Source: a virus. Taken from it: a DNA stretch of 64,000 bases. Below, piece after piece: positions 24,399 to 59,068 of the stretch. The notes beneath the pieces are model-generated. The model had not been told where the DNA came from. It did no database searches and worked only from the letters and a program-made list of their open reading frames with translations. The first letter of the stretch is position 1; each line of letters opens with the position of its first letter. The stretch is taken from the IMG/VR virus record IMGVR_UViG_3300045988_158973, positions 1 to 64,000 of that record, one strand, 5' to 3'. The position numbers and the translations under genes are program-made.

Positions 24399-25886
24399 TT
24401 AGTTGGCGGCACGTCCGATGTTGATCAGACGAACCAGTTTCTTCGGCGCGTACAGGAACGGCGTACCGTACAGCAGCACCATGAAGCGGTACGCAGGCGA
24501 CAGAATCGCCAGGTCCATCTTCATCAGCGGGGCCAGCTGGGCGAACTCAATCACCTCGTTGTCGAACTGTACCAGGAAGGCCTGATCGCAGTCGGGCAGG
24601 AAGTAGTTGTTGTCGCGGCACAGGTCGCCGGCAGCGCCTGCGTAGCCCAGTTTCAGCTGAGCCACCGAGATGTCGAAGATCGGGTACAGTTTGCTGGTCT
24701 TGTCGCCACCCTTCTTCGAACGGTAGATACGATAACCCGTAGCCGGGTGAGCGTTGTCCACGATCGAGAACTTGAGGTCAACGACCGACCCCGCAGTCAC
24801 GGCCACCGGAGTCTCGTTCACCACCAGCGACGACTCGCCGTGGCGGTTGATGGCTGCGATAGCGTAGATGTAGTTGCCAGCGTCCTCCGAGTTGAACTTC
24901 GAGGTCGTCACGTCAGCAACAACCGTAGCCGGAGCGGCGGTGTCCCATACGGGAGCGGCGGGCGACTTGGGATGCGTCGACTGAGCACCAGCAACCTTGA
25001 ACGGAGCCTTCTTGAAGAAGACGTCGTAGTTGAGGCCGATGCGGCCGAACTGCGAGTCGAACGCCTGAACGCGCTGACCCATGATACCGGCGCTGGTCTG
25101 GGCGGTGTTGGGCTGGATGAACTTGTTGCCGTAGAACGTCTTGACGAAGTCCGAAAGAACGGCGGGGGGAGCATACAGCTCGGTTCCGAGGCCGTAGTTC
25201 TCGACGATCGAGTTGGCAGCCGTCTCGATGGGGTCCTCGGTCAGGCCACGACCGCGAAGGTCGATCACGTTATCAGAGTTGAGGTAAGCGTCCAGACCGC
25301 TCCATGCGTCCGACTGCAGCTGCTGAGCCAGCAGACCGTTGAACTCCTGCGGGATGATGTCCGAGTTGCCGTAGTACAGCGACTTGTTCAGTTTGCGGAG
25401 AATCCACAGCGTGCCGTCCTTGATGGTGCGCTCCATGATGTTGCCCACCATCGTGTTGACGAGGGTCATCTGGTGCGTAACGGACTTCGTAACGCCGAGA
25501 TACTTCACGAGCTGAGCCCGACGGATGTAGATCGAGTCTTCCTCGTCGGGGAGTTCGCCTTCGTTGGTGAAGCCACCGCGGTCAGCACCGTACGATGCCA
25601 GCTGGTTGTACTCCTCAACGGTGTTGTAGGCGGCCTTTTTCGGCAGGTTCTTCCAGAGAACGATGTCGCTCTCGCGGAACGTCAGATGTTTCAGAGTACG
25701 CTCCAGCGACTCCACCTTCAGCGGAGCACCCGAGGCATCGGTCAGGTTCGTCGTCTGGCGACCCGTGATGTCGGTTGCTTCGAGGGCTTTGTTCAGCGCA
25801 GCGACCTCTTCCTGACTGGACGAGCCGTACTGGGCACCACGCGCTTGGATGCCATAGTCGGCGAGATTGATAGAAAGTCTGTCCAT
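24399..25886 (-). CDS. major capsid protein (495 aa)
   Basis: Directly downstream of the protease/scaffold gene. Followed by the strongest terminator in the window. Size fits an HK97-fold capsid protein with an insertion domain. Synteny-based call. Confidence 0.65.
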   Translation of the reverse strand: MDRLSINLADYGIQARGAQYGSSSQEEVAALNKALEATDITGRQTTNLTDASGAPLKVESLERTLKHLTFRESDIVLWKNLPKKAAYNTVEEYNQLASYGADRGGFTNEGELPDEEDSIYIRRAQLVKYLGVTKSVTHQMTLVNTMVGNIMERTIKDGTLWILRKLNKSLYYGNSDIIPQEFNGLLAQQLQSDAWSGLDAYLNSDNVIDLRGRGLTEDPIETAANSIVENYGLGTELYAPPAVLSDFVKTFYGNKFIQPNTAQTSAGIMGQRVQAFDSQFGRIGLNYDVFFKKAPFKVAGAQSTHPKSPAAPVWDTAAPATVVADVTTSKFNSEDAGNYIYAIAAINRHGESSLVVNETPVAVTAGSVVDLKFSIVDNAHPATGYRIYRSKKGGDKTSKLYPIFDISVAQLKLGYAGAAGDLCRDNNYFLPDCDQAFLVQFDNEVIEFAQLAPLMKMDLAILSPAYRFMVLLYGTPFLYAPKKLVRLINIGRAAN

Positions 25887-25924: not shown

Positions 25925-27469
25925 TTACTCTACTACCTCGTACCCGGTTTCAGCCTTGAGGCGAGCGATAATGTTCTTGGGGAGACCGTCAGCGGGGCGT
26001 GCCTCAAACGCCAAAAGCGCATCACCGTACTCCTTGTCGTAGCCCTTGGCGAACGATGCCTGGTCGAGCAACGACGCAACGGCTTTCGGGTTTTCACGCA
26101 ACGAAATGCGAGTGGCGTTGCCGCCCTTCTCGATACCGTTGTCGGCGTTACCTTTCGCGAAGGCGCGATCAACCACCGTAGCCGAACGCAGCGACTTCGG
26201 CTGCGGCACCTCGCTGCCATAGCGCTCCAGTTTGGTGGAGAAGCCCTCGATGATCTCGGTCTGGCCCTTGATGATGTTTTCGAGTTCGCCGATACGTTTA
26301 GCGTCTTCGGCGCGTTTCTGGCGAAGATCGTTCACCAGTACGGCAGTAGCGCGAATGTACGACTTGAATTCGTCTCCAACACCATGAATAGCCTTCAGGA
26401 TGTCGTTATCGGCACCCTTCTTCATCTTGGCGCCGTTCTTGTCGCACTCCTCGAAACCCTCGTCGTCATCCTCGGTCTCTTCCTCAGATTCTTCCTTCTT
26501 GCCTGCAACGGCGTTCTTTGCGTTAGCGGCGTTGTGACGCGGCTCGTCGTCGTGGGTTTCGTCTTCCTTCCCCATCTGGCCATCAGCGTCATCGCCCTTC
26601 TGCACGTCCTCGGCATTGTCGGCTTTCTTCTCAGGAGCAAGCCCCAGAGCGTCATATGCCTTCTCGATGTCCTCGGAAGTGATGGATTTGCGTTTGTTCA
26701 TAACCGATATATTTTTGATTAAAGTATACAATTCTTGGGCGTTCGGTATTGTAATATTTGGAATGTCGCGGAAGATACATTCCATGACGGAAGATTTTGA
26801 AAACGTTTTCTTCGGTTGGCCGTCTACGGATTCAGGCATAAGCGCTGCGCCGGATTCAGTAGTTAAAGCCTTCTTTTCGGTCTTGCCGCCATGCTCTTCA
26901 GCGTTATCGTCCTCTTCTTCTAAATCTACCTCAATACCATCGGCGTCAACCTGACCTTTGATGATGTTGACGAACGTGTGAGGGTTCTTCGGCATGTGTG
27001 TTACAGCAACGCCTGTAATCACCGCCTTCACGATCTTGTTGTATAAGGGTGATTTCTTGTCGTTGGAAGCACGTTTTATAACCTTGCCTTCGATGGAATA
27101 TCCCAAGCGGCGTGTCTTGCTGTTTTCTTCGAGAGTTTTGGCTAACTCATATACCTCATTAGCCATAGGTGACGAAGCGTACAAATCACTCTCGATCCAA
27201 AGACCCTCGGGGCGCAGTTCTACTTTCGATGGTTCGCCGATGATTGCTGCAGGCGAGTTCTTGGCCTGATGGTGCCAGTTGACCATTCCCGACTCCTTCA
27301 AGGGCTGGATGTCGAAGCCTGACGGATCGAGTGTTTCGCCGTCAGCATCCTGATCGACGGTTGAAGCAATACCGCCGATGCGCATAACAGGTTCGCCTGT
27401 TTCCTCGTCGGTAGCCTTCTTTATGGGCTCGATAGGGCACCAAAAATTGAATTTATCGTCCTTAAACAT
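25925..27469 (-). CDS. prohead serine protease fused to scaffold domain (514 aa from Met at 27469)
   Basis: The N-terminal domain resembles HK97-type (S78/U35) prohead proteases (RIGGIASTVDQDADGETLDP...VNWHHQ...LGYSIEGKV). The C-terminal half is acidic and helical (EEEDDNAEE, EESEEETEDDDEGFEE), like a scaffold. I prefer the start at MFKDDKF (27469). The track start at 27559 would run through the left inverted repeat. Confidence 0.68.
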   Translation of the reverse strand: MFKDDKFNFWCPIEPIKKATDEETGEPVMRIGGIASTVDQDADGETLDPSGFDIQPLKESGMVNWHHQAKNSPAAIIGEPSKVELRPEGLWIESDLYASSPMANEVYELAKTLEENSKTRRLGYSIEGKVIKRASNDKKSPLYNKIVKAVITGVAVTHMPKNPHTFVNIIKGQVDADGIEVDLEEEDDNAEEHGGKTEKKALTTESGAALMPESVDGQPKKTFSKSSVMECIFRDIPNITIPNAQELYTLIKNISVMNKRKSITSEDIEKAYDALGLAPEKKADNAEDVQKGDDADGQMGKEDETHDDEPRHNAANAKNAVAGKKEESEEETEDDDEGFEECDKNGAKMKKGADNDILKAIHGVGDEFKSYIRATAVLVNDLRQKRAEDAKRIGELENIIKGQTEIIEGFSTKLERYGSEVPQPKSLRSATVVDRAFAKGNADNGIEKGGNATRISLRENPKAVASLLDQASFAKGYDKEYGDALLAFEARPADGLPKNIIARLKAETGYEVVE

Positions 27470-27505
27470 GTTTACGGCACTATTGTTACCACCGTTATAC
27501 TTGTA

Positions 27506-27955
27506 ATGGCGAATCGCGTTGGTACTTTCTCCGGCTCGACGAACGGAACTACTGCTCAATGGACAGAATTAGGCGGTGGCGGAGCAATTATATGGGAGGG
27601 TGAGGAGTCTTTGGTGGACGAAGGTCCGAAAACATTCAACTTCAATAAGACCTTGAAAGATGGTGATATTATATCAGTACTATTCGATATTAATACTGAT
27701 AATAATTTTAAGGTTACCGGATTTACTCAAAACCTAACCTTTCAAGCAATCGTTGGAGAGACCCTATCAAACGTTAATTATGTAGCTTTTTATGATGCCG
27801 GAGGTTCCTCAGGAGGCACTATAAGAGACATAGCCACCTTGCAAGTAGACTGCGGTACTTCCAGATTAATGATTACTACAAGGGGCGGCGAAATGACTCC
27901 TACGGCAAACAGATTTAGCATCAGAAGAATATATAAAGTTGCCAGCGGTAATTAA
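27506..27955 (+). other. silent alternative C-terminal cassette of the 597-aa protein (the only credible plus-strand coding segment)
   Basis: Reads through the left inverted repeat in the same codon phase as the expressed gene reads the right repeat (TFSGSTNGTTAQWTELGGG). The 124 codons after the repeat (27581-27952) are a divergent homologue of the expressed tip. No promoter context. Confidence 0.6.
27522..27580. repeat. left inverted repeat (IR-L) of invertible segment
   Basis: GTACTTTCTCCGGCTCGACGAACGGAACTACTGCTCAATGGACAGAATTAGGCGGTGGC. Its reverse complement occurs at 28397-28455 with 56/59 identity. Confidence 0.9.
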
Positions 27956-27957
27956 TG

Positions 27958-27983
27958 AAAGCCCCTCATTTAGAGGGGCTTTT
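27958..27983. terminator. bidirectional hairpin terminator between the two convergent tip cassettes
   Basis: AAAGCCCCTC-ATTTA-GAGGGGCTTT is a perfect 10-bp stem with T-runs on both strands. It lies 3 nt after the plus-strand stop and 3 nt after the minus-strand stop. Confidence 0.75.
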
Positions 27984-27985
27984 GA

Positions 27986-29779
27986 TTACTTACCGGAAAT
28001 ATTATAAACTCCGGTTATCGCGTATACTATCTCTGGTATATCTCCGTCTTGATTAAGATATAAACCAAAATCAATCTGACCCACGAGAACGTTTTGATCG
28101 TTCTCAAGGCACAACCCATAGAATGTCCCGGCCGAAAAATCGGTGTAAATCTCCTCCAGCGCTACTTGAAATGTAGCATGGTTATCTATAAGAGACGGAT
28201 TTATAATAGCCTGCCCCGCTACATGAAAGCTATTAGGGGTGCCCGTCTTTAACCAAGTTACAAGCAACACATCAGTACTCTTTATTTCGCGGGAAAGCGT
28301 AATAGTGGTCGTTCCACCCGACGTATTAACTAACGGGCACATGCTTAATGCTTGTTCGTCCCAAGTGGATATTTTCTCGAACGATGTTCCACCCGAGCCA
28401 CCGCCTAATTCTGTCCATTGAATAGTAGTTCCGTTCGTCGAGCCAGAGAAAGTACGGCTACCATCAGCCGTTTGGAGTAGATAGGTGTACGATTTTGTCA
28501 AAGAGTTCTTGATACAATGCCCGTAAAAGGCCGTACGAGTAACGCCCGAAGGTAGTCCAATGGCGTTGGCTAAAGCATATACGATCAAGCCTTGACCTGC
28601 GCTCAAGTTTTGTATGACTACATTCGTTGGGGCTACGAAGTTAGTCACCGTCACTTTTTGCGCCGCTTGACCTACCATGGCGACTCTTACTCCCGTCAGA
28701 TTCACAGCTCCGGTTGTTGCGTTAACAGCGATGCGGTGCATTTCAGCACCAAACGTTGAGCCAGTATCTACCGAAGGACAGGCGAAGACATAGTGATCGG
28801 TTTTACCGCTGTCTTGAGACCGAATAAAGTCTAATTGAATGTAGTCTGCCTGATCGGGGGTACTGAATACTAAGCGGAAGATATCGGCAACCTTAACGAA
28901 TTTCAAATCGCCAGTAGGCACATCCTTGTTTTCGGCGTATGTGAATTCGTACACCGAGGCTTCGATTCCCGTGGGGGTGCCAACAATAGACCAGTTCGTA
29001 TTGTAAATACTCGTAGACTGGTAAGTATACAGATACGAGCGTCTATAAGTATTGATTGAGGTAGAAGTGCCGACATATTTAACCGACAAAGCAGAAACTT
29101 TTACAGCATAACCTACCAACTCCGAACCGGGACCATTAGCAGCGTCAACGGCGCTTGTAAACGTGAACATCTCACCAACGGCAATATCACCAATCGCACC
29201 ATTACTGAAAGTGTTGCGGGTAAAATCAGTAACCGTCAGATATTTCATGGCGCTGCTGCTTCCGGCCCACTCCATCGTTACACCCAGACCGCCCCAATCG
29301 CCAGAAGCGGTCGAGTGAAGTTTCGTGATGATCGCTTCGTCAGTCAGTGTCTGCAGCGTAGGCCATGCCATAGCGACACTGGACGAAGGAATGACTCGGA
29401 TATAATCGTTCGTCAGGTGGAAAATCTGGAGGCCGTTCGTCCCCTGCGTCTCGGCATTCGTGCCCTGAATGATATTTACGATGAATGCCATTTCAGGTTT
29501 CCCGGACGCTCCGGTGGCGGGGTTGCCGGATACGATACGAAGACGGCCAATATTAGCCGCCGCCGTCAGCATCTCGAGCATACTGAGAAGTGTAGTCTTG
29601 TTATCGACGTACTTCAAACGGCTGTTGATAGGCAAATCACCCATATTCGGATTCTGCGAAAACGTCAACGCCGCAATCTGGCTTGTGTTAATCTTGTTGG
29701 ACTCAGAAACCTGAATTTCTTCTTGTCCGCTGGCCGAAGACTTCAGCGTCAACGCAGACATGTCAATAAAAGTAGGCAT
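27986..29779 (-). CDS. putative receptor-binding / adhesin protein with switchable C-terminal tip (597 aa)
   Basis: Intact ORF. The C-terminal 136 aa lie inside the segment bounded by the inverted repeats. No family motif recognised. The function is inferred from the invertible-cassette architecture. Confidence 0.55.
   Translation of the reverse strand: MPTFIDMSALTLKSSASGQEEIQVSESNKINTSQIAALTFSQNPNMGDLPINSRLKYVDNKTTLLSMLEMLTAAANIGRLRIVSGNPATGASGKPEMAFIVNIIQGTNAETQGTNGLQIFHLTNDYIRVIPSSSVAMAWPTLQTLTDEAIITKLHSTASGDWGGLGVTMEWAGSSSAMKYLTVTDFTRNTFSNGAIGDIAVGEMFTFTSAVDAANGPGSELVGYAVKVSALSVKYVGTSTSINTYRRSYLYTYQSTSIYNTNWSIVGTPTGIEASVYEFTYAENKDVPTGDLKFVKVADIFRLVFSTPDQADYIQLDFIRSQDSGKTDHYVFACPSVDTGSTFGAEMHRIAVNATTGAVNLTGVRVAMVGQAAQKVTVTNFVAPTNVVIQNLSAGQGLIVYALANAIGLPSGVTRTAFYGHCIKNSLTKSYTYLLQTADGSRTFSGSTNGTTIQWTELGGGSGGTSFEKISTWDEQALSMCPLVNTSGGTTTITLSREIKSTDVLLVTWLKTGTPNSFHVAGQAIINPSLIDNHATFQVALEEIYTDFSAGTFYGLCLENDQNVLVGQIDFGLYLNQDGDIPEIVYAITGVYNISGK
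28397..28455. repeat. right inverted repeat (IR-R) of invertible segment
   Basis: The reverse complement reads GTACTTTCTCTGGCTCGACGAACGGAACTACTATTCAATGGACAGAATTAGGCGGTGGC, differing from IR-L by 3 transitions. Confidence 0.9.
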
Positions 29780-29815: not shown

Positions 29816-30340
29816 TCACGCCATTATTTCAACGTGTATTGCAGGCTCGTTGGCGTCAATGGAAACTTTCGGGCTGTCGTACTTCGTATCACCTAACGGC
29901 GTGATAATTTTACGGCACTTTTCTTCTTTGGCCAACGCTTTGGTGAAGTCGCGTGGGTTTTTCATGCGGGTGATCGACAGGTCGATGATGTTGCACTGAC
30001 GGTACAACTCCTCCGTGGTACAATGGAGCGAAACACGTTGCCCCATTGAGGCTTGACGCTCGATTTCAGCTACCATCAGTTTCTCAACCTCAGACCGGGC
30101 CTGCTTTTTGCAGTTATCGTCAAAAACCTTCACAACAGCTGCACCGGGGGCGCGATAACGAATGCGCTTGCCGGCGTACAGGTTGTCGGCCATAGCCTTG
30201 GCCTGTGTTTCGGGGGTGCGCAGCGTGGAGGTAATGACGATATCGGGGTTGTTGGTATTATCGGCGACGCGGCTGATAAGGTCTTTCACCGTGTCGTTAA
30301 TCGCAAACGCCGACTTGTTAGCGTATGTAATATTTGCCAT
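29816..30340 (-). CDS. putative LAS-superfamily (M15-like) zinc peptidase (174 aa)
   Basis: The pattern ITSTLRTPETQ ... SLHC ... IIDLS ... AIHVEI resembles the SGxR...SxH...D...H arrangement of M15 DD-/LD-peptidases. Weak call made by eye. Confidence 0.35.
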   Translation of the reverse strand: MANITYANKSAFAINDTVKDLISRVADNTNNPDIVITSTLRTPETQAKAMADNLYAGKRIRYRAPGAAVVKVFDDNCKKQARSEVEKLMVAEIERQASMGQRVSLHCTTEELYRQCNIIDLSITRMKNPRDFTKALAKEEKCRKIITPLGDTKYDSPKVSIDANEPAIHVEIMA

Positions 30341-34917: not shown

Positions 34918-35727
34918 CTACACTTCTACAGCGTCAAAGTCAATATCAAACTTCTTGTACACAATACGCAACTCCGGAACGCCGTTTATGGGTTTCTTCT
35001 TTTCGTCAACACGAGCGTTAAGCGGCCAACGCTTCAAGATAATATCGTGAGCACGCTGTACACGCTCTTGACGCTTGTATACGTCTTGAAGACCGCCGCC
35101 TTGAGTGGCTTCCTTGTTCATTTTGCTCTGGAGAAGGAAACGCACGAACCGCGCATACACGATACCGAGGTACATGCACTTCAACGAATAGTCGATATCA
35201 CACTTCAACTCCAACTTTTCGTCAAAATCCAGTTCCAGCGTGCGTAAGCCTTTGAACACGATGAGGTGAGGGATGCCGCCGTATTTGAAGCGAGGGCTGA
35301 CGTCGGTGCAGTTCCAGTCAAACGCGCTCTTCCCCATGGTCCCGTACTCGAAGTCGGTTTCCATGACTTCGCGGTTGAACTCTTCGAAGAATTCAGCCAA
35401 CTCTTCAGGGGTTTTCAACGAAAGCCCGCATTTGGCTTCGCCGTCAATCGAATAGAAGAAGTTGGCGATATCGTCATCCATGACCACTACCGGGCGCCCC
35501 TCGTGCAGATAGGTGTTCTTACAGAAATTGACTACATAGCTGTAGCCACGATTCGATGCCGGTAGCACGATAAGGCGTTCACGCTCGTGACCCGCTTCGA
35601 CGTATTTCTCGACGTCTTCTTTCTCGACTACGATGTGATAGTCGACGCCGCCCTTTTTCAGCAGTTTGGTCGTGACGCATTTAGGGCGGTTCTTGGACAC
35701 GACGAAGAATTGACAATTCATACTCAA
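34918..35727 (-). CDS. GT-A-like glycosyltransferase, copy 1 (269 aa)
   Basis: Rossmann-like start FFVVSKNRPKCVTT, DxD-type VVVMDDDIANF, and a C-terminal QGGGLQDVYKRQ...RWP. It is a paralogue of 53123..53938 and is reminiscent of TET/JBP-associated glycosyltransferases of phage DNA-modification loci. This was not verified by a search. Confidence 0.5.
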   Translation of the reverse strand: MSMNCQFFVVSKNRPKCVTTKLLKKGGVDYHIVVEKEDVEKYVEAGHERERLIVLPASNRGYSYVVNFCKNTYLHEGRPVVVMDDDIANFFYSIDGEAKCGLSLKTPEELAEFFEEFNREVMETDFEYGTMGKSAFDWNCTDVSPRFKYGGIPHLIVFKGLRTLELDFDEKLELKCDIDYSLKCMYLGIVYARFVRFLLQSKMNKEATQGGGLQDVYKRQERVQRAHDIILKRWPLNARVDEKKKPINGVPELRIVYKKFDIDFDAVEV

Positions 35728-36404
35728 AACGGTAAGTCACCCTCGTACCAAATTTCCTCGGGTGGGTTTTGTTCTATAAAACGTTGATATTTGTTCATCG
35801 TAGGCTCTAACGACGGATAAAAGCGCAGCGCCAGTTCCCACTTAACGTCGAACATATCGCCAACATCAACCCGGCGTTTCATCAACAAACTTTCGCTGCC
35901 GTAGCACTGGACTTGAATCTGGCTACAACCGCGGCGCGTGTACGAATACGGAAAGTCGCGATAGTATTCCGCCCCGGACGCCGTATCATACACCGTATCG
36001 TGCACAAACTGGTTGAAGGGGTTGCCTGCACCCAACGGCGCTAACAGGGTGTATCCGGGGTTGCGGCGCATAAACTTACGCAAATAATCGCGAAGCGTTT
36101 GTTCGGCGAAATTAAGCCCATCAGTCCCGAATTTAGCGCGAAGGTACATATAGACGCTTTCGTAGCTATAATCCCTGTAATGGGTCTTGAAATCGCTGCA
36201 ACGGACATCTTCTAACTCCAAGTCCAGACAGTCCGCGCCGATTCCCAGAAAATCGTACAATTTACGCTGTTCAGCGAGCGACGATGGCGCGTTATCAACA
36301 GTAAGCACCCGAACGTCGTATTCGGGTGCTACTAAAACGTGACAAGCGCTCATCAGGAGATCACCCGCGTGCGGCTCGACACAGAGGTACTTTATTTTTC
36401 CCAT
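35724..36404 (-). CDS. PIG-L/LmbE-like de-N-acetylase (226 aa)
   Basis: N-terminal KYLCVEPHAGDLLMSACHVL resembles the (A/P)HPDD zinc-binding motif of the LmbE/PIG-L family, with a later FVHD. 4-nt overlap with the downstream GT gene. Confidence 0.42.
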   Translation of the reverse strand: MGKIKYLCVEPHAGDLLMSACHVLVAPEYDVRVLTVDNAPSSLAEQRKLYDFLGIGADCLDLELEDVRCSDFKTHYRDYSYESVYMYLRAKFGTDGLNFAEQTLRDYLRKFMRRNPGYTLLAPLGAGNPFNQFVHDTVYDTASGAEYYRDFPYSYTRRGCSQIQVQCYGSESLLMKRRVDVGDMFDVKWELALRFYPSLEPTMNKYQRFIEQNPPEEIWYEGDLPF

Positions 36405-37351
36405 GGCCGTTTGTAAATCTTCTCAGCGCACGGGCCGTCCTTCGATACGTCTTCAGCCATACGGCGAATTTCAGGCGTAATAGGCGGCAGCGTTTTCTTG
36501 CCCATTTTGTCAGGCAGGAATCCGACGCGGACGCTGACGTGTGTACACCCTTGACACGGCCGGAAACGGCGGTCATTGTTGTACAGCATAACGCGAGCGG
36601 CGTGAAAACGCGGATGGTTCCAAAGGTCCTCGATAGGCATATCGTGGATATTGGCGATAGGGTATTCGCCGCGGAAGTCGTCACAGCACAGACACACCTG
36701 GCCATTCCAACGCACATCCAGTTCACGGAACGGGAAGGTACAGCGCTTGTTGTTGAACGAATCGTCGAGCGGGAACGCTGCACCGCAGTGATTGGCCAGG
36801 CGACGCGTCATCTTGTTGGTATCGTCTTCGGCGATAGGCGGCAGCAGGCAGATACGACGCCCCTGCTTGGGATAGTAGTACGGAACGCCCGGTTCCAGCG
36901 TGACGACGTTGTACTTTTCAACGTCGATCTTCTTGACGAAGTTCCAGTCGCCGTTGGCTGTGTAGCAGTCAACCAGTATGTCGTTCATGCCGGCCTCGAA
37001 CAGGCGGTCGAGGTACTCGGACGTGTCAGCGGCGTGGTTCATGGCGTAGCCGTTGCTGTACATATGAAATACGGCCTTCGGTAAGTGCTTGCGGAACGTA
37101 GCCACGATGTCGATGAACGCGGGGTTAAGCGTCGGCTCGCCGTGCATAGCGAACACGAACTTACAGTTCCACCCCACGCGTGCCACCTCCGAAGCAATAC
37201 GCTCGGCGGTTTCAACGGTCATGAAATTCCACGGTTTAGTCCCTTTTTCGCGCATACCGTGAAGACCACAGAACGAACACCCCAGATTGCACCCCTCGGT
37301 CGGCTCGATCTGCATGGTAAACGGGGGGTCTTGTACGATTTTGTTTTTCAT
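36392..37351 (-). CDS. radical SAM enzyme with C-terminal Cys-rich (SPASM/twitch-like) extension (319 aa)
   Basis: Canonical CxxxCxxC in EPTEGCNLGCSFCGLHG. Later Cys clusters are CTFPF...VCLCCDDF...RPCQGCTH. The start codon shares 1 nt with the MuF stop codon. Confidence 0.8.
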   Translation of the reverse strand: MKNKIVQDPPFTMQIEPTEGCNLGCSFCGLHGMREKGTKPWNFMTVETAERIASEVARVGWNCKFVFAMHGEPTLNPAFIDIVATFRKHLPKAVFHMYSNGYAMNHAADTSEYLDRLFEAGMNDILVDCYTANGDWNFVKKIDVEKYNVVTLEPGVPYYYPKQGRRICLLPPIAEDDTNKMTRRLANHCGAAFPLDDSFNNKRCTFPFRELDVRWNGQVCLCCDDFRGEYPIANIHDMPIEDLWNHPRFHAARVMLYNNDRRFRPCQGCTHVSVRVGFLPDKMGKKTLPPITPEIRRMAEDVSKDGPCAEKIYKRPWEK

Positions 37352-39452: not shown

Positions 39453-39624
39453 CCTCGTTTAGTTCTTTAACCGCCGCAGCCGTAGCGTCGGCGATGTATT
39501 TCAAGACATCACCGAGCGCCGCGGCGTTATTGGCGTTCCATTCCTTAATGAATCGGTTCTCGTATTGAGTAACGGTGGGGAATGGCGACGGAAGGAAGTG
39601 TGTATGTTTGGCGTTGTAGGGCAT
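39406..39624 (-). CDS. hypothetical protein (72 aa)
   Basis: Intact co-oriented ORF whose start shares nt 39624 with the stop of the upstream gene. Overlaps the next ORF by 47 nt, so one of the two starts is uncertain. Confidence 0.3.
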   Translation of the reverse strand: MPYNAKHTHFLPSPFPTVTQYENRFIKEWNANNAAALGDVLKYIADATAAAVKELNEDETKKGNLGHTVNED

Positions 39625-41687
39625 TACTCTTCGGTGTTACCGCCGTAGATTTCGAGGAACTTGTCGACGAATTCCTTGTTGGTGCGTTTCATTACCTCGA
39701 TTTGCGCGTCAACCTTCTTGCGGTATTCTTCCGGATCATACTCCCCGCGAAGCGAATCGCGTGCAGCCTGACGCTCGTCAGCGATTTTCTTCAACTCAGG
39801 ATGGTTGAGGAGTTCTTGGCCAACGCCCTTGTCGCGCGACTGCGGATCGGTAAGCGAATTGAGGCTCAAAGCAGCACGCTGGGCCTCCTTGTCGCCGGAT
39901 GCGATCCTTGCTTTCAGAGCGCGGGCAATGCCTTCAGGATTCTTGGCGATCATCTTGGCGTACTCAGCCGGATCAGCCCCTCTGCCGGTTTTCTTGATGA
40001 ATTTATCGGCTGCAGCGTTATCCTTCTCAGGCGAAGACTTTGTAGCTTTGTCGGCCTTGGTGCCCTTTTCAGCACTCTTCACTTCAGCCTTGGCGGCAGC
40101 ATCAGCCTTCTTACCTTGCTTGGTAGCGCTTTCCTCCTCACCGCCGATCAGCGCGTCGAGTTCCTTCTGGCCGTCCTTCGATACCTTCACGCCAGCCATC
40201 TCGAACATATTGGCGATGGTGTCGGCAATTTCGTCGTCCGTAGCGTCGGACTGAGCACCACCAGTGTCAACCGGATTTGCTTTCATGGCTGCAGCCAGCT
40301 CCTTGATGGCCTTGGCGTCGCCTTTCTGCTTTACGAAGGACTTGAAGCCTTCAGTGTCGAAGTCGGTGTCGTTTTCAGCCATGTCGTCGAAACTTTGAAC
40401 GAGGCCCTCGGCGCTGCTGACCTTACCGTCGTCGTTGGCGTCAGCGCGCATCTTGTCGAGCGTGGCTTGGCCTTTCTTCGAAAGTTCGATACCGGCTTCT
40501 TCGAAGATGTTGGCGATCTCGTCAGCGATTTCATCGTCGTTCAAATCGCTCTGAGCCGATTCAGCCTCGTCGGATGCCTTGATGGCGGCGACGAGTTCCT
40601 TGATGGCCTTGGCCTCGCCCTTGTTGTCGATGAGGCTTTCGAGCGCTGCGCCGAAGTCATCGTCTTCACCCGACTCCGAAGTGTAGGCGTCCCACTTGGC
40701 CAGAACGCTTTCACCCGACCCGCGAAGGTTGTCGAGTTCCTTCTTGGCCTCACGCGGTACGCGCGTTCCGGCCTCTTCGAACATATTCTCGATCATGTCG
40801 GCGATCTCGTCGTCAGCCAGATCACTTTGCCCGGCCTCGCTGGGCATCTTACGGATGGCGTCGGCGATTTCCTTCACGGCCTTACCGCCTTTTTCCTTCA
40901 CGAACGATTTGAACGACTTGGCGTCGAAGTCTGCATCGCCCTCAGCCATAGCGTTGAAACTGTCAACGAGCGATGCGGCGTCAGCCTTTCCGCCCTTACC
41001 CTTGGCGTCGGGATCGCCAAACTTAGACGCGGCTCCCTCAACGTCGCCGATCTCCTTCACCGTCACCGACTCGAAATTGTCCACGTCGGCGTAGGGGTAT
41101 TTGTCCACGCGGTAGCCCTCGCTGGTCTTGGTGACTACAAGGTCGAAGCCGTCTTCGTCACCGCCGATCTGCTTGATGAAGGCGTGCGAAGCGTCCTCAA
41201 CTCCGGCGTACTGCTGGAGGTCCTGATCGTCCATCTGACGGAAGCCCATGCCCTCGAACGTCGATGCCGATTTGGCGTCACCGTCAGCCAGCCCGTTACG
41301 CAGCGACGTGTCGCCGTTCTTGTTCTTGGCGCGAACGCTTACACCGCGGCGTTCCAATTCAGCGGTAGCCACCTTGCGCATTTCGGGGTCAGCCTGCGGA
41401 TCGTTGGCAACCTTCGTCAGCGCCTCCTCCGAAGCCTGACGAGCGTGGTTCTGGAGGCTGACATTTCCCTCAGGCATACCACCCTCCTGGCCTTCGCCTT
41501 CAGGGTCTTCCTTGGCGGCTTGGCCGTACTCCTGTCCCACGCGCTGCAGACGACGGTTTTGAGCGTTGTCGGTGTAGACACCGTGACGCGCTTTTTCGAT
41601 CGGCTCTTCCGCGGCCTCCTCGGGGTTGGTGAACCCTTTAAGAATTTGCTGGCGACGCGCTTCGCCGTAGTTGATAACTTCTTTCAT
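39624..41687 (-). CDS. acidic repeat-containing protein, possible internal head / scaffold-like protein (687 aa)
   Basis: Three tandem ~90-aa repeats, very D/E/K/A-rich, and an N-terminal EKAR...NRRLQRVGQEYG motif. The mirror plus-strand ORF is rejected. Confidence 0.6.
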   Translation of the reverse strand: MKEVINYGEARRQQILKGFTNPEEAAEEPIEKARHGVYTDNAQNRRLQRVGQEYGQAAKEDPEGEGQEGGMPEGNVSLQNHARQASEEALTKVANDPQADPEMRKVATAELERRGVSVRAKNKNGDTSLRNGLADGDAKSASTFEGMGFRQMDDQDLQQYAGVEDASHAFIKQIGGDEDGFDLVVTKTSEGYRVDKYPYADVDNFESVTVKEIGDVEGAASKFGDPDAKGKGGKADAASLVDSFNAMAEGDADFDAKSFKSFVKEKGGKAVKEIADAIRKMPSEAGQSDLADDEIADMIENMFEEAGTRVPREAKKELDNLRGSGESVLAKWDAYTSESGEDDDFGAALESLIDNKGEAKAIKELVAAIKASDEAESAQSDLNDDEIADEIANIFEEAGIELSKKGQATLDKMRADANDDGKVSSAEGLVQSFDDMAENDTDFDTEGFKSFVKQKGDAKAIKELAAAMKANPVDTGGAQSDATDDEIADTIANMFEMAGVKVSKDGQKELDALIGGEEESATKQGKKADAAAKAEVKSAEKGTKADKATKSSPEKDNAAADKFIKKTGRGADPAEYAKMIAKNPEGIARALKARIASGDKEAQRAALSLNSLTDPQSRDKGVGQELLNHPELKKIADERQAARDSLRGEYDPEEYRKKVDAQIEVMKRTNKEFVDKFLEIYGGNTEE
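40140..40973 (-). repeat. three tandem ~270-nt coding repeats (aa ~239-516 of the 687-aa protein)
   Basis: Repeat core: DFD..FKSFVK.KG.AKAIKE.A.A.K......QSD..DDEIAD.I.NMFEEAG......G.KELD. Copies start near aa 239, 331 and 427. Confidence 0.8.
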
Positions 41688-41720
41688 GGTGTTATAGGTT
41701 TATAAGTTTCATTTCCACTA

Positions 41721-45042: not shown

Positions 45043-45300
45043 TTAGCGTGAATATACGTAGGTAGCGCGGTCGGCCCACACGAAATTGTAACTCATGTCG
45101 CCAATGGGGTATTCGGTGATGGTGATTCCGTCGGCGGTAGTCTCACGCTCGATGCGCCACCCGGCTTCGCCTTGGCCCGTACCGATGGGGGCATAGCCGC
45201 GGTAGATCACGCTGCCGCCGGAAGCGTCGATGATAGGCTTGGGCATAGCGTCAGCCAACAGCTGTACGATGGGCGCGGTGTTCTTCTCGTTACTCGTCAT
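45043..45300 (-). CDS. hypothetical small protein (85 aa)
   Basis: Intact co-oriented ORF overlapping the portal stop by 11 nt. Confidence 0.4.
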   Translation of the reverse strand: MTSNEKNTAPIVQLLADAMPKPIIDASGGSVIYRGYAPIGTGQGEAGWRIERETTADGITITEYPIGDMSYNFVWADRATYVYSR

Positions 45301-47050
45301 GGTTTATTGCTTTTTGTAAGTATTCATCGAATGCGGCCACGAGCGGATTTGCCTCACGGGCCTTCATAGTTTCTTCTTCATCGCCTTGGGCGTAGAGATC
45401 GAACGGGTTGCCGGCCTGCGCTTCATCGTCTTCCTCACCTTCGCCGCCAGCCACAGGTTCATCGGCCGGGCCGCCAGCAACCTCCATACCCATACCCGCG
45501 GCCTCTTCGAACGGGTTGCCGCCGCCCATACCACCCATCGCCTGTTGCTGTTGTTGCTTGGCGCTGAGTGCTTGCTGGATGACGGCGTTCTCGATGGTGT
45601 CGCCACCCTTTTCTTCGCCGATAGCCGGGAGGTCCCACTTCTCGCGAATCTCGTCCACGGTCTGGAAGGCTTGAAGGCGTTTGATGTCCATATCCAGCTC
45701 TTCGGAAATGGTCATTCCGTTGAGGCCCATGAATACGAATTCGAAGTCAGGGTTGATTTGCTCGACTATGAATTTGTTGAGTTTACGCTGGATGAACTTC
45801 AGCATCGGGTAGAGGCCCTTGTCCTTGGACTGCTCCATGCGCTGCTTTTGGCCATCGCCGAACGTCAGGCCGCTGCCGTTGGAACGAGAAATGTCCCACC
45901 CGATTTCCGTCGGGTCGATACAGAATACAGCACACGCGATCTTGATCAGGTATTCCATCCACGAGTTGTACTCCATATCGCGGTTGTTCTTCTGGAGATC
46001 AACCCAGTCGATATCGCCCTCAACGACGGGCGTCTTCCACGACTGCATAACGCCTGATATCATGGCCTGCCACTGCTGCTTGAACTGCTGAAGTGAAGCC
46101 TCATTGACGTTACCCTTGATCCGAAGAAGACCCTTCGGCGCTGATCCTTGAGAGAAGAAGCGGCGGTTGTATTCGTCACCCCAAAGCATCGATGTAACGA
46201 CGTTAATCAGTTCTTCCAATTCAGAGTTTCCGTACCCGTTGGCGTAGATCGACGTGGTCGGGTTGCGTATACCGAAGCACAACTCCCACGGATAGAACTG
46301 CGCCACCTTGGCTGTTTGGTACACCTGAACGTAGGCCGGATAATAGCCATCAACCTTTGGACCCCAGTTTTGGCGGTCATCCATCATAGCGCCGTCAAAA
46401 TACGGGTTGTTGTATTCACCGTCGAAGTACGATTCAGCCAACCGGAACGTCGCAGCATCGACGGCTTGAAACCGTACCAGTTTGCCGCGGCGGTTACGAA
46501 TGCACTCAAACGTCATCTGGTCGAACGTCAACGAGTCGTCAACGATTTTACGAATAAACTCGTCAAACTCGTCGCCGTCCCAAGTGGCGGTATCACCGCA
46601 ATTGAGAATGAAGTCGGTGATGGAGGCCGCAATCTTGCGGTCTTGAGAATCCATCTTCTGCTCTTGGCCGAATTTCGGTTTACGACGAATGACGAATCCC
46701 GTAGAATAGCGGTCGGCCTGTGGTTCGGCAAAGTCGGCTATTTGGTTCTTGCGGGTCTTGAGGATTGAGTTGATGATGGGGGTGCGGCTCATCCGGCGCA
46801 GTGTCTCATACGAGAGCGAAAACGGCTTATCCTTATACCCCAAAAACGAATTGAACTCCAAAGGATCGATCAAGTACGCCTTCGGGGCAACGTTAGCAGG
46901 CTTGGATTGCTGATTGAATATTTCAGCGGCTTTGAGTATATCGGACGGGTTGTCGCTGCTCAACGCACGCTCTACCAACAGCGACTTGCGTATTGTTAGA
47001 GCCTGCATGGCACGTTCCACCGATTCCAATCTTTCTTTTACACCGGACAT
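45290..47050 (-). CDS. portal protein (586 aa)
   Basis: Core region ...GYGNSELEELINVVTSMLWGDEYNRRFFSQGSAPKGLLRIKGN...EYNSWMEYLIKIACAVFCIDPTEIG matches the conserved portal core pattern. Gly/Met-rich acidic C-terminal tail. Confidence 0.75.
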   Translation of the reverse strand: MSGVKERLESVERAMQALTIRKSLLVERALSSDNPSDILKAAEIFNQQSKPANVAPKAYLIDPLEFNSFLGYKDKPFSLSYETLRRMSRTPIINSILKTRKNQIADFAEPQADRYSTGFVIRRKPKFGQEQKMDSQDRKIAASITDFILNCGDTATWDGDEFDEFIRKIVDDSLTFDQMTFECIRNRRGKLVRFQAVDAATFRLAESYFDGEYNNPYFDGAMMDDRQNWGPKVDGYYPAYVQVYQTAKVAQFYPWELCFGIRNPTTSIYANGYGNSELEELINVVTSMLWGDEYNRRFFSQGSAPKGLLRIKGNVNEASLQQFKQQWQAMISGVMQSWKTPVVEGDIDWVDLQKNNRDMEYNSWMEYLIKIACAVFCIDPTEIGWDISRSNGSGLTFGDGQKQRMEQSKDKGLYPMLKFIQRKLNKFIVEQINPDFEFVFMGLNGMTISEELDMDIKRLQAFQTVDEIREKWDLPAIGEEKGGDTIENAVIQQALSAKQQQQQAMGGMGGGNPFEEAAGMGMEVAGGPADEPVAGGEGEEDDEAQAGNPFDLYAQGDEEETMKAREANPLVAAFDEYLQKAINHDE

Positions 47051-47087: not shown

Positions 47088-47411
47088 TCAACACAACAGT
47101 TTCAAAATGTCGTTCCGTGCCGTTTGCCTGATAATCAGAGCCCGATGGACGATATCGCCCCACACAGCCACCTGATAACCATTCCACGTGAAATAGTCCG
47201 TCTGGTCGTCATACGAACCATTCCATTCACCGTCGTGACGTATATCAACGATCAAACGATCAAACCGCGCTTTTTCTTCCGTGGTGAAGGGTGTTATGAA
47301 AGTGCCGACGACTACTAATCGTGCGGCACTCGTAGACAGGTCATCGGCCATAATCTGAAAGTCGATACCCATAAAATCGCCCGTTTCAAGAGGCGTGTGA
47401 AAGGTTATCAT
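47088..47411 (-). CDS. hypothetical protein (107 aa)
   Basis: Intact ORF with a 4-nt overlap to the upstream gene. Confidence 0.4.
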   Translation of the reverse strand: MITFHTPLETGDFMGIDFQIMADDLSTSAARLVVVGTFITPFTTEEKARFDRLIVDIRHDGEWNGSYDDQTDYFTWNGYQVAVWGDIVHRALIIRQTARNDILKLLC

Positions 47412-48418
47412 TGCCCCACTAATTTACGAGTTTGAGGTTCAAATGTAGAACGCTGCTTACCTTCGCCAATACGCATTTTCCAATACTTTTGGTACTCACA
47501 CAGCCACATTTCCACCTGATGAAGCGTTATTTCTCCCACACGCGATACGCGGTAACGCCACCCGGCGCGGTCCCAGTGTAGGTATGGGAAATTACCTAAC
47601 TTCGCCAACTCGTCGCGTGATTCATCGCGCAGGCGATATATTCCATCCACCTGACGTTTCAACGACGGAAATATCAACCGCAACCCAATCGAGGCGCCAG
47701 GCCCTACGTTGGTATAGTCGTCTTGAGTAAAACGCATGAAACGACGCGTGGTGTAGCGTGATATGTAGGTGAAGTCTTGGTAAAATTCGTGAGCGATGAA
47801 TGTAGCCGATGAAGGTAAACTGCGTAAAAACCTGATGATCTGTTCGGGGGTTTCAGCCGCCAATACCGTCCGTATCAACTCACCCAAGCGCTGGTGTAAC
47901 GTGGGAACCACCAAGTGCGTGTAGCAGTAGTCGCGCGGTTTACCGGGCGTGGCCATCGAATTGATCAAATACGCCGTGGTGTAAGGGTTGTTTCCCGACG
48001 CACGGTACGCAGCTATCATCTCTGCGAAGCGATCTTCGTCGTATTGGTCGTAATCCGGAATTCCCGCCTTCCAACCATATCGTTCTTGAGCGAATTCGAA
48101 CGTTGCAGGATTATTGAAGTACCGAAACACCATCGTCTTCCAAACCAAATTCGTCAACGAAAGTAGCGGATCGAGGATGATGTTTCGTATTTGCCACTGC
48201 GAATTGCGGTCCAACTCGCGGTATACGTTGGTGAACTTATAGTCCCTTAAGATCGGATCTTCGGTCCACGGACGCGGCGCTCCATCCAAGAAGCGGCGTT
48301 TCCATATCATCTGGCGCTCGAACATCGTTCTGAAGAACTCCGAGCGGTGCTCTTCGCTCACGTCCAGCGTTTCATCAGGTAGCTTATCTGCCCACGCATA
48401 ATTATCAAAGGTCGCCAT
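47408..48418 (-). CDS. aGPT-pyrophosphorylase-like DNA base (thymidine) hypermodification protein (336 aa)
   Basis: N-terminal FERQMIWKRRFLDGAPRPWTEDPILRDYKFTNVYRELDRNSQW matches, from memory, the hallmark W.RR...PWT.DPIL..Y.FTNVYRE.DR.T region of the alpha-glutamyl/putrescinyl thymine pyrophosphorylase families. A profile search is needed. Confidence 0.6.
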   Translation of the reverse strand: MATFDNYAWADKLPDETLDVSEEHRSEFFRTMFERQMIWKRRFLDGAPRPWTEDPILRDYKFTNVYRELDRNSQWQIRNIILDPLLSLTNLVWKTMVFRYFNNPATFEFAQERYGWKAGIPDYDQYDEDRFAEMIAAYRASGNNPYTTAYLINSMATPGKPRDYCYTHLVVPTLHQRLGELIRTVLAAETPEQIIRFLRSLPSSATFIAHEFYQDFTYISRYTTRRFMRFTQDDYTNVGPGASIGLRLIFPSLKRQVDGIYRLRDESRDELAKLGNFPYLHWDRAGWRYRVSRVGEITLHQVEMWLCEYQKYWKMRIGEGKQRSTFEPQTRKLVGQ

Positions 48419-49661: not shown

Positions 49662-50654
49662 CTACTTTATTAACATTCCGTAGAAGTCTTCAAGCGTGTA
49701 TGCCTTCTTATAGTTGTAGCTGTCCTTCGTGTTGGCCACCTCTTCAGCCATCGCTATGAGTAGTTCTTCCTGCTTGGGGCCGTACACCGACGGTGAAAGC
49801 CACGTTAACTGAATATTGGAGATGATACGACCTATTTCTTCCGTTGAAAGCGCCGTGCCCAAAAATCGCTCAAACTTGGACTGAATCCAAAGCGCCAGTT
49901 TCGTACAGCTGTAGCCTTGGAATACGGTCGGCGACGGCAATCGGCCGTTGAGTTCCGGTTTCAGTGATTCGATAAAACGGTTGAACGCCTTATCGCCAAA
50001 TCCAGCGCGGACCTTGGGTATATTATCCGACTTATCACCCATGAGCACCTTATACAACAACACCTCAAACGCTTCGGTGGTGAGAACCTGAATTTCGGCG
50101 TCCAAGCGCTCATTCCACAACGCCTCCTTGCCTGGAAAGACGTAGAACTTCATGAACTTCGAGTTGTAGTTAAACACCGAAATGGTTGGCGTTATCAGCT
50201 GGCGAATATCGCTGTCGGCGGTGAGAATCACCGTCTCTTCGTCAGGGAGTTCGTCCAACGCAAAGGCCCACATCATAATCAGGTCGTCGCCTTCAGCTCC
50301 CGGTACGCGCGTAACAATCAGCCCGCGTTTACGCAACAGCGCTTCGAATTCACCCAACACTTCAACGAACGCATCACTCCATGGTTCCTTCACGCGCGTG
50401 AGAGCGTACTTGTAGTCGTCGTAAATAGTTCGCCGCCACGAGTGGGAGTCGATGACCACCACAACGCGGTTCACGTCATCGCCAAAGCGCCGCACCGCAG
50501 CGCAAAGGTTCATCACGCACTTACGAATCAGAACTTGACGCTTTTCGCGGTCTTCCAGGACCTCTGTTAGGTCCTGGCCGCGATAGTATGTCGAGAATAC
50601 AGAGAACGACAGGTGGTACAGGAAATTGCCGTCAAATACGAGATTCACTTTCAT
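49662..50654 (-). CDS. 5'-3' exonuclease / flap endonuclease (T4 RNase H / FEN family, 330 aa)
   Basis: PIN-like acidic motifs: LVFDGNF, VVVIDSHSWRRTIYDDYK, GAEGDDLI, ILTADSDIRQL, and the H3TH-region LMGDKSDNIPKV. Confidence 0.78.
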   Translation of the reverse strand: MKVNLVFDGNFLYHLSFSVFSTYYRGQDLTEVLEDREKRQVLIRKCVMNLCAAVRRFGDDVNRVVVVIDSHSWRRTIYDDYKYALTRVKEPWSDAFVEVLGEFEALLRKRGLIVTRVPGAEGDDLIMMWAFALDELPDEETVILTADSDIRQLITPTISVFNYNSKFMKFYVFPGKEALWNERLDAEIQVLTTEAFEVLLYKVLMGDKSDNIPKVRAGFGDKAFNRFIESLKPELNGRLPSPTVFQGYSCTKLALWIQSKFERFLGTALSTEEIGRIISNIQLTWLSPSVYGPKQEELLIAMAEEVANTKDSYNYKKAYTLEDFYGMLIK

Positions 50655-52445: not shown

Positions 52446-53126
52446 TTAATATCCACCGTCCGTGGTGTGACCGTCGTTATCGATACGTTTCCAGTAGCCG
52501 CAGTCCTCGCACTGGTAAAGAACCGTGTCGTCTAAGTCCTTCGTTACCGACATCGGCGAGCCGCAGCGCGGGCACGGTTTCACGTCTTCGTCCCACACGG
52601 CACGCGGTGTTTCCTTTTTGACCGTTGACCCGAAACCACCCGTGTCGCGCTTCGACGGAGTGAGTTCTTCAACCCAACCGGACTCAATTTGGGGCGCAGG
52701 CACGATGACCAGCTGGGCTACGACATCACCGACGGCGAACGCCTTGGAATGTATCGGGCGGGGATTGACACAGAGTTTTCCGACTCCGTGACTATACGTC
52801 TGTAGTTTACCGGCAATCTTCTGCCACAGCGTCGGTGCGTGGAAGACGTTTTTGTAGCGAGCGCGCATCGTACCACGATACCCCGGATCGATCACCCCCG
52901 GCGCGTTACACATCACCAGGTCCTTTTTCGAACAGCGCGAATTGGGGACCAAAAAGCCGCAGTACCCCTTGGGTATTTCAACGGCCACGCCAGTGTCGTA
53001 TTCGATGTAGTCTTCGGTTTCCTCGATCGACACAGCCACGAGGTCCAGTCCGTTGTCTTCGCCGTCGGGGTGAGCGTATGTCGGGAGAACAGCGTTGGGG
53101 TGTACTTTCTTGAATTTTACGTTCAT
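52446..53126 (-). CDS. dut: trimeric-type dUTPase fused to a C-terminal zinc ribbon (226 aa)
   Basis: All five dUTPase motifs are present: I PTYAHPDGEDNGLDL, II PNSRCS, III GVIDPGYRG, IV GDVVAQLVI, V RDTGGFGST. There is a ~45-aa insertion between motifs III and IV. The C-terminal Zn ribbon is CPRCG-x17-CEDCG. Confidence 0.82.
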   Translation of the reverse strand: MNVKFKKVHPNAVLPTYAHPDGEDNGLDLVAVSIEETEDYIEYDTGVAVEIPKGYCGFLVPNSRCSKKDLVMCNAPGVIDPGYRGTMRARYKNVFHAPTLWQKIAGKLQTYSHGVGKLCVNPRPIHSKAFAVGDVVAQLVIVPAPQIESGWVEELTPSKRDTGGFGSTVKKETPRAVWDEDVKPCPRCGSPMSVTKDLDDTVLYQCEDCGYWKRIDNDGHTTDGGY

Positions 53127-58994: not shown

Positions 58995-59068
58995 TGGTTG
59001 AGATGGAAGGATTCGAACCTCCAACGCGAGAACCAAAATCTCGTGTGTTACCATTACACCACACCTCA
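58995..59068 (-). tRNA. tRNA-Gln (anticodon UUG), CCA encoded
   Basis: Hand-folded cloverleaf: acceptor TGAGGTG/CATCTCA (U1-A72), D stem GTGT/ACAC, anticodon stem CGAGA/TCTCG, loop TTTTGGT, T arm GGAGG-TTCGAAT-CCTTC, then A-CCA. Confidence 0.85.

Follow-up and report, generated by a model that had tools for sequence, protein, structure and literature searches.

A putative homology-driven switch between two tip cassettes in a fibre-like gene of an uncultured human gut phage

Host-range switching by DNA inversion is textbook knowledge for temperate enterobacterial phages with Gin-type invertases, and in phage Mu the repeat measures about 34 bp and contains a 26-bp gix core. The crossover sites of such switches (gix, hix, cix) are short, at 26 bp with a 2-bp core, and are accompanied by a Fis-bound enhancer. 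The T-even gp37/gp38 genes and the fibre mosaics of P2, Mu, and P1 evolve by homologous recombination at conserved linkers. To our knowledge, host-range switching by inversion has received hardly any attention in the human gut, where virulent, uncultured phages predominate. Surveys of gene-altering programmed inversions and intragenic invertons spanned bacterial chromosomes and prophages, and their examples include prophage tail fibres as well as some loci without a nearby recombinase (PMC9881135; PMC10028968), while viruses were named as future work (PMC9881135). A 2026 paper describes 16 putative invertons from metagenome assemblies of gut viruses and presents them as the first such candidates (PMC13501310), and Anabaena cyanophages possess a ~30-kb invertible region with inverted repeats of 400-700 nucleotides (nt) (bioRxiv 10.64898/2026.02.14.705889). 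Here we report the analysis of positions 1 to 64,000 of the virus record IMGVR_UViG_3300045988_158973 (hereafter the window, meaning this whole stretch of 64,000 nt), in which a gene for a fibre-like protein of 597 amino acids (aa) is accompanied by a second, silent tip cassette that faces the expressed one across an in-frame inverted repeat. The locus is probably a two-cassette tip switch combined with an exchange module, driven by homology, in a probably receptor-binding fibre-like protein of a virulent-type phage.

The layout is like that of the G segment of Mu (Gin), the C segment of P1 (Cin), and the P segment of e14 (Pin), in that inverted repeats inside a fibre gene bound an invertible segment and a constant N-terminal part is continued in frame by one of two C-terminal parts that face each other. 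The distal repeat arm (27522-27580, plus strand) and the proximal arm (28397-28455, minus strand) match at 56 of 59 positions. They form the sole inverted repeat of at least 30 nt in the window, and a search tolerating up to three mismatches found the arm sequence at these two sites only (expected number 0.00, from 100 shuffles). Both arms share one codon phase and encode TFSGSTNGTT(A/I)QWTELGGG. On the minus strand, the gene at 27986-29779 (597 aa) runs ...SRTFSGSTNGTTIQWTELGGG-SGGTSFEK and consists of a constant N-terminal part of 441 aa (28456-29779), delimited by the open reading frame (ORF) and the conservation among homologues; the proximal arm, whose peptide TFSGSTNGTTIQWTELGGG forms the closing beta-strands of the last constant domain and a Gly linker; and the expressed tip cassette A (27986-28396; 136 aa and a stop codon). 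The plus-strand ORF (27506-27955, 149 aa) runs MANRVG-TFSGSTNGTTAQWTELGGG-GAIIWEGEE and contains, downstream of the distal arm, the intact silent tip cassette B (27581-27955; 124 aa and a stop codon), which is inverted relative to the gene.

Both stop codons flank a bidirectional terminator-like hairpin with a core stem at 27958-27982 and extended pairing at 27945-27995; the extended fold has a free energy (dG) of -27.7 kcal/mol on the plus strand and -26.3 kcal/mol on the minus strand (z -7.6 and -8.1), and a minus-strand terminator-like site was also called there. Tip B, the hairpin, and tip A together make up the invertible segment of 816 bp (27581-28396), for which reversed homologues were found in relatives. 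Flipping this segment in silico yields an open 585-aa protein composed of the 441 constant aa, the repeat, and the 124-aa tip. An original prediction, made from the sequence of the window alone, had described the 59-nt inverted repeat, the two convergent ORFs reading its arms in one codon phase, and the in-frame replacement of a 136-aa tip by a 124-aa tip; all of these were reproduced, and the bidirectional hairpin that it had placed between the tips is stronger than first described (z about -8).

Identity drops abruptly at the inner edge of the repeat, and beyond the outer edge only a weak resemblance continues (91 nt at 80% overall). There, at 27490-27521 on the plus strand, lies a decayed remnant of the constant region, identical at 17 of 32 positions to 28456-28487, which holds the ATG (27506) of the 149-aa ORF and adjoins the ATG (27469, minus strand) of the head protease gene. 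This flank is identical or nearly so across all genomes with two cassettes; it is never part of any product and has decayed.

A search of 5.8 billion proteins with the predicted flipped product as query returned more than 600 homologues. Their constant part shows 75-90% aa identity in over 100 homologues, and the junction TFSGSTNGTTxxWTELGGG, at about aa 463, is invariant among the homologues listed and parsed. The body of ~460 aa is followed by one of at least eight tip families of ~120-245 aa that look unrelated to each other. We labelled these A (SGGTSFEK, expressed in the window), B (GAIIWEGEE, silent in the window), C (SGVKKLPGLD, the commonest tip), D (GAGVEQLF), E (GDEIFPGWK), F, G, and H. 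Weak similarities connect B with D (E=4e-7), G with C (2e-6), and D with G (0.006); A and B, which had been described as divergent homologues, share 24% identity over 66 aa (E=0.008, a single comparison). The tips also have in common a C-terminal strand motif ending in Y or F, and on the basis of this motif and the chain of weak similarities we take them to be one fold that has diverged. With 50 representatives among 1.84 billion cluster representatives, the family is narrow.

Most genomes of the family carry a single cassette. The two-cassette layout was found in 13 genomes, the window included, with five tip pairings. Given as expressed/silent and with our own genome labels, these are A/B (window, L161), E/D (L005, L159, L160, L165), C/D (L166), D/G (L007, L162, L163) with its reverse G/D (L012), and D/H (L017, L164). 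Every two-cassette genome contains exactly two copies of the repeat, as the window does; the distal arm begins at one and the same nucleotide beside the protease gene in 13/13, and inversion in silico likewise produces an alternative in-frame product in 13/13. About 40 nt of the hairpin region are ~90% conserved in L007, L012, and L017 despite the other cassettes present there. In single-cassette genomes the collinearity with the window resumes exactly at 27521, and thus the distal arm and its cassette behave as one unit. Each tip type that occurs as a plus-strand-style ORF also occurs fused to the constant part elsewhere.

The D/G pair occurs both ways round, with the breakpoints and steps in identity located exactly at the repeat arms. 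Between L007 and L012, 885 bp from arm to arm are reversed at 98.2% identity within flanks that are collinear at 92.7% and 86.9%; between L162 and L012, the same 885 bp are reversed at 99.3% (six differences), with flanks at 89% and 86%. Since the two orientations are only 6/885 nt apart, at least one flip or re-insertion must be recent. Tip A is also expressed in L161, whose genome is 99.8% identical to the window, and in P0001/P0002. Tip B is the expressed tip of P0003 (L033/L034), with 97.6% nucleotide identity that extends through the hairpin, in a different backbone whose constant part is only ~84% identical to that of the window at the nucleotide level. This protein was the best tip-B carrier when the flipped isomer of the window itself was sought among the 5.8 billion proteins; given its diverged constant part and other backbone, it was rejected as that isomer. 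The exact silent B ORF was found in three contigs in all, each of them with A on and B off. That the protein has an alternative C-terminal cassette swappable through in-frame repeats, as originally proposed, is borne out by the layout in 13 genomes, the D/G pair in both orientations, and the concerted arms and selected silent cassettes described below. The findings that had been named as speaking against it, namely a repeat not conserved in related genomes and a cassette that is an independent gene, did not emerge among the relatives.

Several loci show cassettes out of their usual context. With tip A only as query, a search returned a single protein, and this proved to be an orphan cassette (L168:3941-4385; Logan ERR10880543_588) that is 93% identical to tip A of the window, hairpin included; it has no junction repeat upstream and lies on the same strand as, and ~7 kb from, the fibre gene of an L033-like phage that expresses tip B. 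In L154 (IMGVR_UViG_3300023504_000029), the usual distal arm precedes a silent D cassette (L154:6006-6400), which adjoins a fibre gene (L154:6400-8100) with a wholly replaced constant part; that gene encodes 557 aa with the junction GTEWTEISASSGGG and a G-like tip and has no partner arm, and the D cassette looks like a stranded one. The loci L157 (contig 3300045988_146743) and L158 (ERZ779896 NODE_169, 99,387 bp) stop inside or at a repeat arm. If the contigs truly end there, the break in assembly would be expected either with both orientations present or with a repeat longer than the k-mer. They were not taken as a hint of mixed orientations, as the ends of the loci may differ from the ends of the contigs and the repeat exceeds common assembly k-mers.

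The repeat arms bear traces of exchange with each other. The repeat measures 59-66 nt, is coding throughout, and has a variable inner edge that follows the coding sequence of the tip. In 9 of the 13 genomes the arms are perfect over 56-66 nt, and the genomes show four distinct arm haplotypes, the two arms agreeing in each case. Although the D and H cassettes of L017 and L164 are almost the same, both arms differ between these genomes at several positions of the repeat; L163 is intermediate, with arms unlike each other at that patch. Such covariation of the arms at synonymous sites, i.e., concerted evolution, requires repeated arm-to-arm exchange. Homogenisation is lowest in the window and L161, where the arms mismatch at positions 11, 33, and 34; their proximal arm resembles a chimera of two junction types (with ACT ACT ACT CAA in L161), a pattern that fits an old crossover within the repeat. 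Two further observations concern the junction. In L016 the junction peptide is duplicated in tandem (L016:7213-7330; …WTELGG-GSTNGTTTTRTELGGG…), and in the proteins P0032 and P0054 the first 12 aa of tip C are duplicated in tandem; these duplications suggest slippage or unequal exchange at a hotspot.

A dedicated recombinase was not detected in the sequence scanned. Pfam scans of all window ORFs of at least 60 aa gave no match to Resolvase or Phage_integrase, and neither family was among the matches listed for the remaining ~37 kb, which were read from the relative contig 3300045988_173425 (itself a two-cassette genome, 96-97% identical to the window where compared). The neighbours of the segment, namely the protease/scaffold gene, the capsid gene, and the gene of a 174-aa protein, include no serine or tyrosine recombinase. 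The same relative encodes a RecA-like (RecA/UvsX-like) protein (L096:17293-18390), an Mre11-like phosphoesterase (L121:1411-2508), an AAA_23/ABC-type Rad50-like protein, helicases, and GIY-YIG homing endonucleases. T4-type recombination reportedly works on about 50 bp of homology, a figure ascribed to Singer et al. in 1982.

General homologous recombination is favoured because no recombinase was detected, and because the repeat is long, coding, and variable at its inner edge, and its arms are homogenised. Under this mechanism, a reciprocal crossover between the arms would flip the segment and fuse the other tip in frame, whereas non-reciprocal (non-crossover) exchange would keep the arms identical. 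The arms would double as breakpoints for swaps of whole tip modules between co-infecting relatives, the hairpin would end transcription in whichever direction the segment faces, and the exchange would be driven during replication by the phage's own RecA/UvsX-like and Mre11/Rad50-like machinery. We infer that the exchange is homology-driven, that flipping proceeds at an appreciable rate within one population, and that the window's own A/B pair, with its three repeat mismatches, still flips. A bolder version, which we hold only tentatively, is that of a recombinase-free switch in which one stretch of 59-66 nt would serve both as the flip site for two stored tips and as a universal splice point for the trade of modules.

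An unrecognised invertase of the phage, or one encoded by its host, cutting a defined core in the repeat, would instead make the locus a true site-specific phase-variation switch, and its logic is indeed the same as that of Mu G, P1 C, and the shufflon. Gut Bacteroidales carry many invertases, and many ORFs of the phage have no family assignment; against this stand the lack of any Resolvase or Phage_integrase match across the equivalent of a whole genome of sequence and the absence of the repeat core from 185,579 bacterial and archaeal species genomes, which speaks against a recombination site shared with the host, though a host enzyme needs no such site. The outer boundary of the repeat falls on the same nucleotide in 13/13 genomes, whereas the repeat as a whole, at 59-66 nt, exceeds known invertase sites in length and, its inner edge being variable, is not as sharply defined as they are. 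Moreover, if strand exchange took place at a fixed core, synonymous sites would not become homogenised along the entire repeat. Programmed inversions lacking a nearby recombinase gene are documented (PMC9881135), and on balance we consider a site-specific switch unlikely.

The silent cassettes are informative about whether the second tip is in use. They are intact in 13/13 genomes, and tip B is identical in L161. For D cassettes in the silent position, the ratio of non-synonymous to synonymous substitution rates (dN/dS) is 0.08-0.3 at a synonymous divergence (dS) of 0.2-0.5, as for expressed copies. These values indicate that the silent cassettes are under purifying selection and kept functional. 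They bear on a second alternative, in which the distal cassette is an archived relic of exchange between phages, inversion or replacement is rare, and one tip is made per infection. A relic that is never expressed would be expected to degenerate, like the flank beyond the distal arm, and its arms should hardly be kept perfect, with four haplotypes homogenised within genomes. The skewed orientations, with the window pair seen only as A-on/B-off, the three mismatches in the window repeat, and the prevalence of single cassettes in the family agree with a relic, as does the horizontal movement of modules, seen in the identity steps at the arms and in the orphan or re-contexted cassettes of L154 and L168; the near-identity of the two D/G orientations, with its recent flip or re-insertion, does not. 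Altogether we find a relic quite unlikely.

The closest tip pairs differ by ~67 non-synonymous to ~1 synonymous substitutions in sum. The ratios are 22 : 0 for tip E of L160 and L165, 12 : 0 for tip D of L009 and L019, 10.5 : 0.5 for tip E of L159 and L160, 10.3 : 0.7 for tip B of the window and L033, and 6 : 0 for tip A of the window and L161. The substitutions affect all four bases and extend from end to end of the tip. Where these tips are more diverged, dN/dS is 0.1-0.3. Judged from these counts, the non-synonymous excess is the signature of diversifying selection on what would be an interaction surface in an arms race. A diversity-generating retroelement (DGR) was rejected as its source, since the substitutions are not A-biased, the window has no template repeat, and a reverse transcriptase was absent from the window and from the matches listed for the relative.

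The 597-aa protein and ten distant members of its family gave no Pfam or PHROG match, and the protein has no sequence relative in the PDB. The full-length AlphaFold model, with a predicted local distance difference test score (pLDDT) of 51, was too poor for use, and we relied on a model of the C-terminal 222 aa. In this model the peptide encoded by the repeat forms the final beta-strands of a domain with pLDDT >90, which is followed by a low-confidence GGG(S)G linker and a beta-sandwich tip (pLDDT 55-80). The crossover zone thus coincides with a domain boundary and a flexible linker, and therefore any tip can be fused there. A fold search of the PDB produced no significant match (the best was a phi812 baseplate chain, E=0.03). 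In BFVD, a collection of predicted viral structures, members of the same family were followed by tail-fibre and tail proteins with E-values of 1e-5 to 1e-3 and TM-scores of 0.25-0.3. The diversifying selection and the weak fold similarity to tail proteins make a receptor-binding, tail-associated role likely, with the tips presumably binding receptors; the protein may instead be a head fibre.

Several observations weigh against the favoured tip switch. The orientation counts are skewed (E-on/D-off in 4/4, A-on/B-off in 3/3, and D-on/H-off in 2/2), and only D/G was seen both ways, at 3 versus 1. The evidence for both orientations comes from comparisons between genomes rather than from the reads of one sample, and the D/G difference could stem not from intramolecular inversion but from module transfer between genomes, with two crossovers in the arms. 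Orientation in short-read assemblies rests on reads that span the 59-66-nt repeat, which is normally unproblematic. In the window the repeat has its three mismatches, the longest perfect block being 25 nt, and homology-driven flipping would therefore be lowered there. The shared outer edge is what a defined site would give. The RecA/UvsX-like and Mre11/Rad50-like genes were seen in the relative, not in the window, and a novel recombinase may be among the many phage proteins without a Pfam match. As for the receptor-binding role, the gene adjoins those of the head protease and the major capsid protein, the full-length model reached a pLDDT of only 51, and the PDB gave no significant fold.

It is very improbable that the plus-strand 149-aa ORF encodes an independent small protein (a free tip domain, decoy, or assembly factor) and the repeat reflects shared ancestry: although the ORF has its own stop codon followed by the hairpin, gene callers predict such genes and proteins of 144-149 aa (P0149, P0159, P0162), and every two-cassette genome keeps the ATG at 27506, this last point is explained by its position in the upstream region of the protease gene, the ORF is the sole plus-strand gene in a long minus-strand block, it starts 36 nt from the opposite-strand start of the protease with no promoter-like site upstream in a sigma-70-type scan, every such tip type is also fused to the constant part elsewhere, and shared ancestry alone leaves the perfect, co-varying synonymous sites of the arms unexplained.

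The phage has a genome of ~100 kb and comes from the human gut, and related contigs measure 96-101 kb. Nearly all genes of the window are on the minus strand. The 597-aa gene lies directly upstream of the gene of the head maturation protease/scaffold (25925-27469, minus strand) and that of an SU10-like major capsid protein (24399-25886), so that its originally noted location in the head-gene block holds. Other genes include a portal gene (45290-47050), a 5'-3' exonuclease gene (49662-50654), and a tail block with Baseplate_J and M23 peptidase. A 174-aa protein encoded immediately upstream of the fibre gene (29816-30340, minus strand) is kept beside it in all relatives and occurs also in the L033/L168 backbone; it has no Pfam match, and its likeness to a cell-wall peptidase is by eye only. 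In the phage database, matches of the fibre-like protein were confined to two crAss-like genomes, one for the N-terminal part (54% identity) and one for the tip (35%). A crAss-like identity was rejected, as the window belongs to a different ~100-kb phage with Baseplate_J, an SU10-like capsid, a head protease, and thymidine-hypermodification genes. A megablast search with 20 kb of the window found no match among 50,697 phage records.

The hypermodification genes (47408-48418, 34918-35721, 53123-53938, and 36392-37351, all on the minus strand) encode a 5-hydroxymethyldeoxyuridine (5-hmdU) DNA kinase, two TET-associated glycosyltransferases, and a radical SAM/SPASM protein. A relative also has a thymidylate-synthase-like enzyme (L096:9577-10800). 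Together, the hypermodification genes suggest hypermodified thymidine in the phage DNA. The window further contains genes for an HU/IHF-like DNA-binding protein (59387-59683, minus strand) and tRNA-Gln(UUG) (58995-59068, minus strand); HU-type proteins assist certain DNA inversion reactions. In a 905-aa ORF (53958-56675, minus strand), domains of the Hint and LAGLIDADG homing-endonuclease types, at about aa 130-383, mark an intein-like insert. A region with an ORF of ~700 aa on each strand (39582-41705, plus; 39624-41687, minus), neither with a Pfam match, includes diverged direct repeats at 40155-40814 with a period of ~150/300 nt and 60-81% identity.

If flipping occurs at a useful rate, receptor specificity would alternate within a single phage lineage, which would bear on its persistence against hosts with phase-varying surfaces (bet-hedging), and host-range prediction or strain typing from one assembled orientation would miss half of the repertoire. 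The lack of a detected invertase, combined with homogenised arms used as breakpoints of exchange, points to a simpler, homology-driven design of switch, which could readily be copied in engineered phages with swappable tips. Should the recombinase-free version be true, the locus would be a counterpart of Mu G programmed by homology and independent of any invertase gene.

Compared with known systems, the locus differs from Mu G, P1 C, and e14 P in that no serine invertase is adjacent or found elsewhere in the sequence scanned, its carrier is a virulent-type ~100-kb gut phage rather than a temperate enterobacterial one, and the gene is placed beside head protease and capsid genes. Where Mu has a repeat of about 34 bp, the one here is conserved coding sequence that spans 59-66 nt and varies at its inner edge, unlike a short defined site, and its 816-bp segment consists of two tips and a hairpin without an accessory or chaperone gene, while Mu has U/U'. 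It is like the R64 shufflon (Rci) and p15B Min in that inversion would select alternative C-termini of one surface adhesin by crossover within coding sequence; it differs from them in that a single pair of arms bounds a single segment, where they have several segments and 19-bp sfx repeats, and from the shufflon in that no Rci-like tyrosine recombinase was found in the sequence scanned. The original prediction of a Mu-G/shufflon-like switch holds as to the logic, but the locus is not a member of those families: Gin- or Rci-type recombinases were not detected in the sequence scanned, neither the accessory genes of Mu nor the multiple segments of the shufflon are present, and the repeat is 59-66 nt of coding sequence rather than a short recombinase site.

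DGRs acting on tail-fibre tips share with this locus the fast diversification of a C-terminal tip and the extreme non-synonymous excess. Their hallmarks did not appear, with no RVT match in the window or among the matches listed for the rest of the relative, and no template or direct repeat of the tip in the window; the changes here span the whole tip and are not adenine-specific. The invertible region of the Anabaena cyanophages likewise has opposite orientations among close relatives that do not follow phylogeny, whereas here a segment of 0.8 kb lies between repeats roughly one tenth as long, and inversion would alter the protein product and not only gene order. With the fibre mosaics of T-even phages and P2/Mu/P1 the locus has in common that tip modules cross diverged backbones with breakpoints at a conserved junction. 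The difference is that here the junction is also duplicated in inverted orientation in one genome together with a stored second tip, and thus the same homology can act intramolecularly as a switch. In gene-altering programmed inversions and intragenic invertons, likewise, inverted repeats overlapping a coding sequence give alternative in-frame C-termini of a specificity protein (PMC9881135; PMC10028968). On the sequence evidence, the predicted switch belongs to this generic class, with its variants known here between genomes, and it occurs in an uncultured virulent-type gut phage, a setting from which inverton reports have just begun (PMC13501310).

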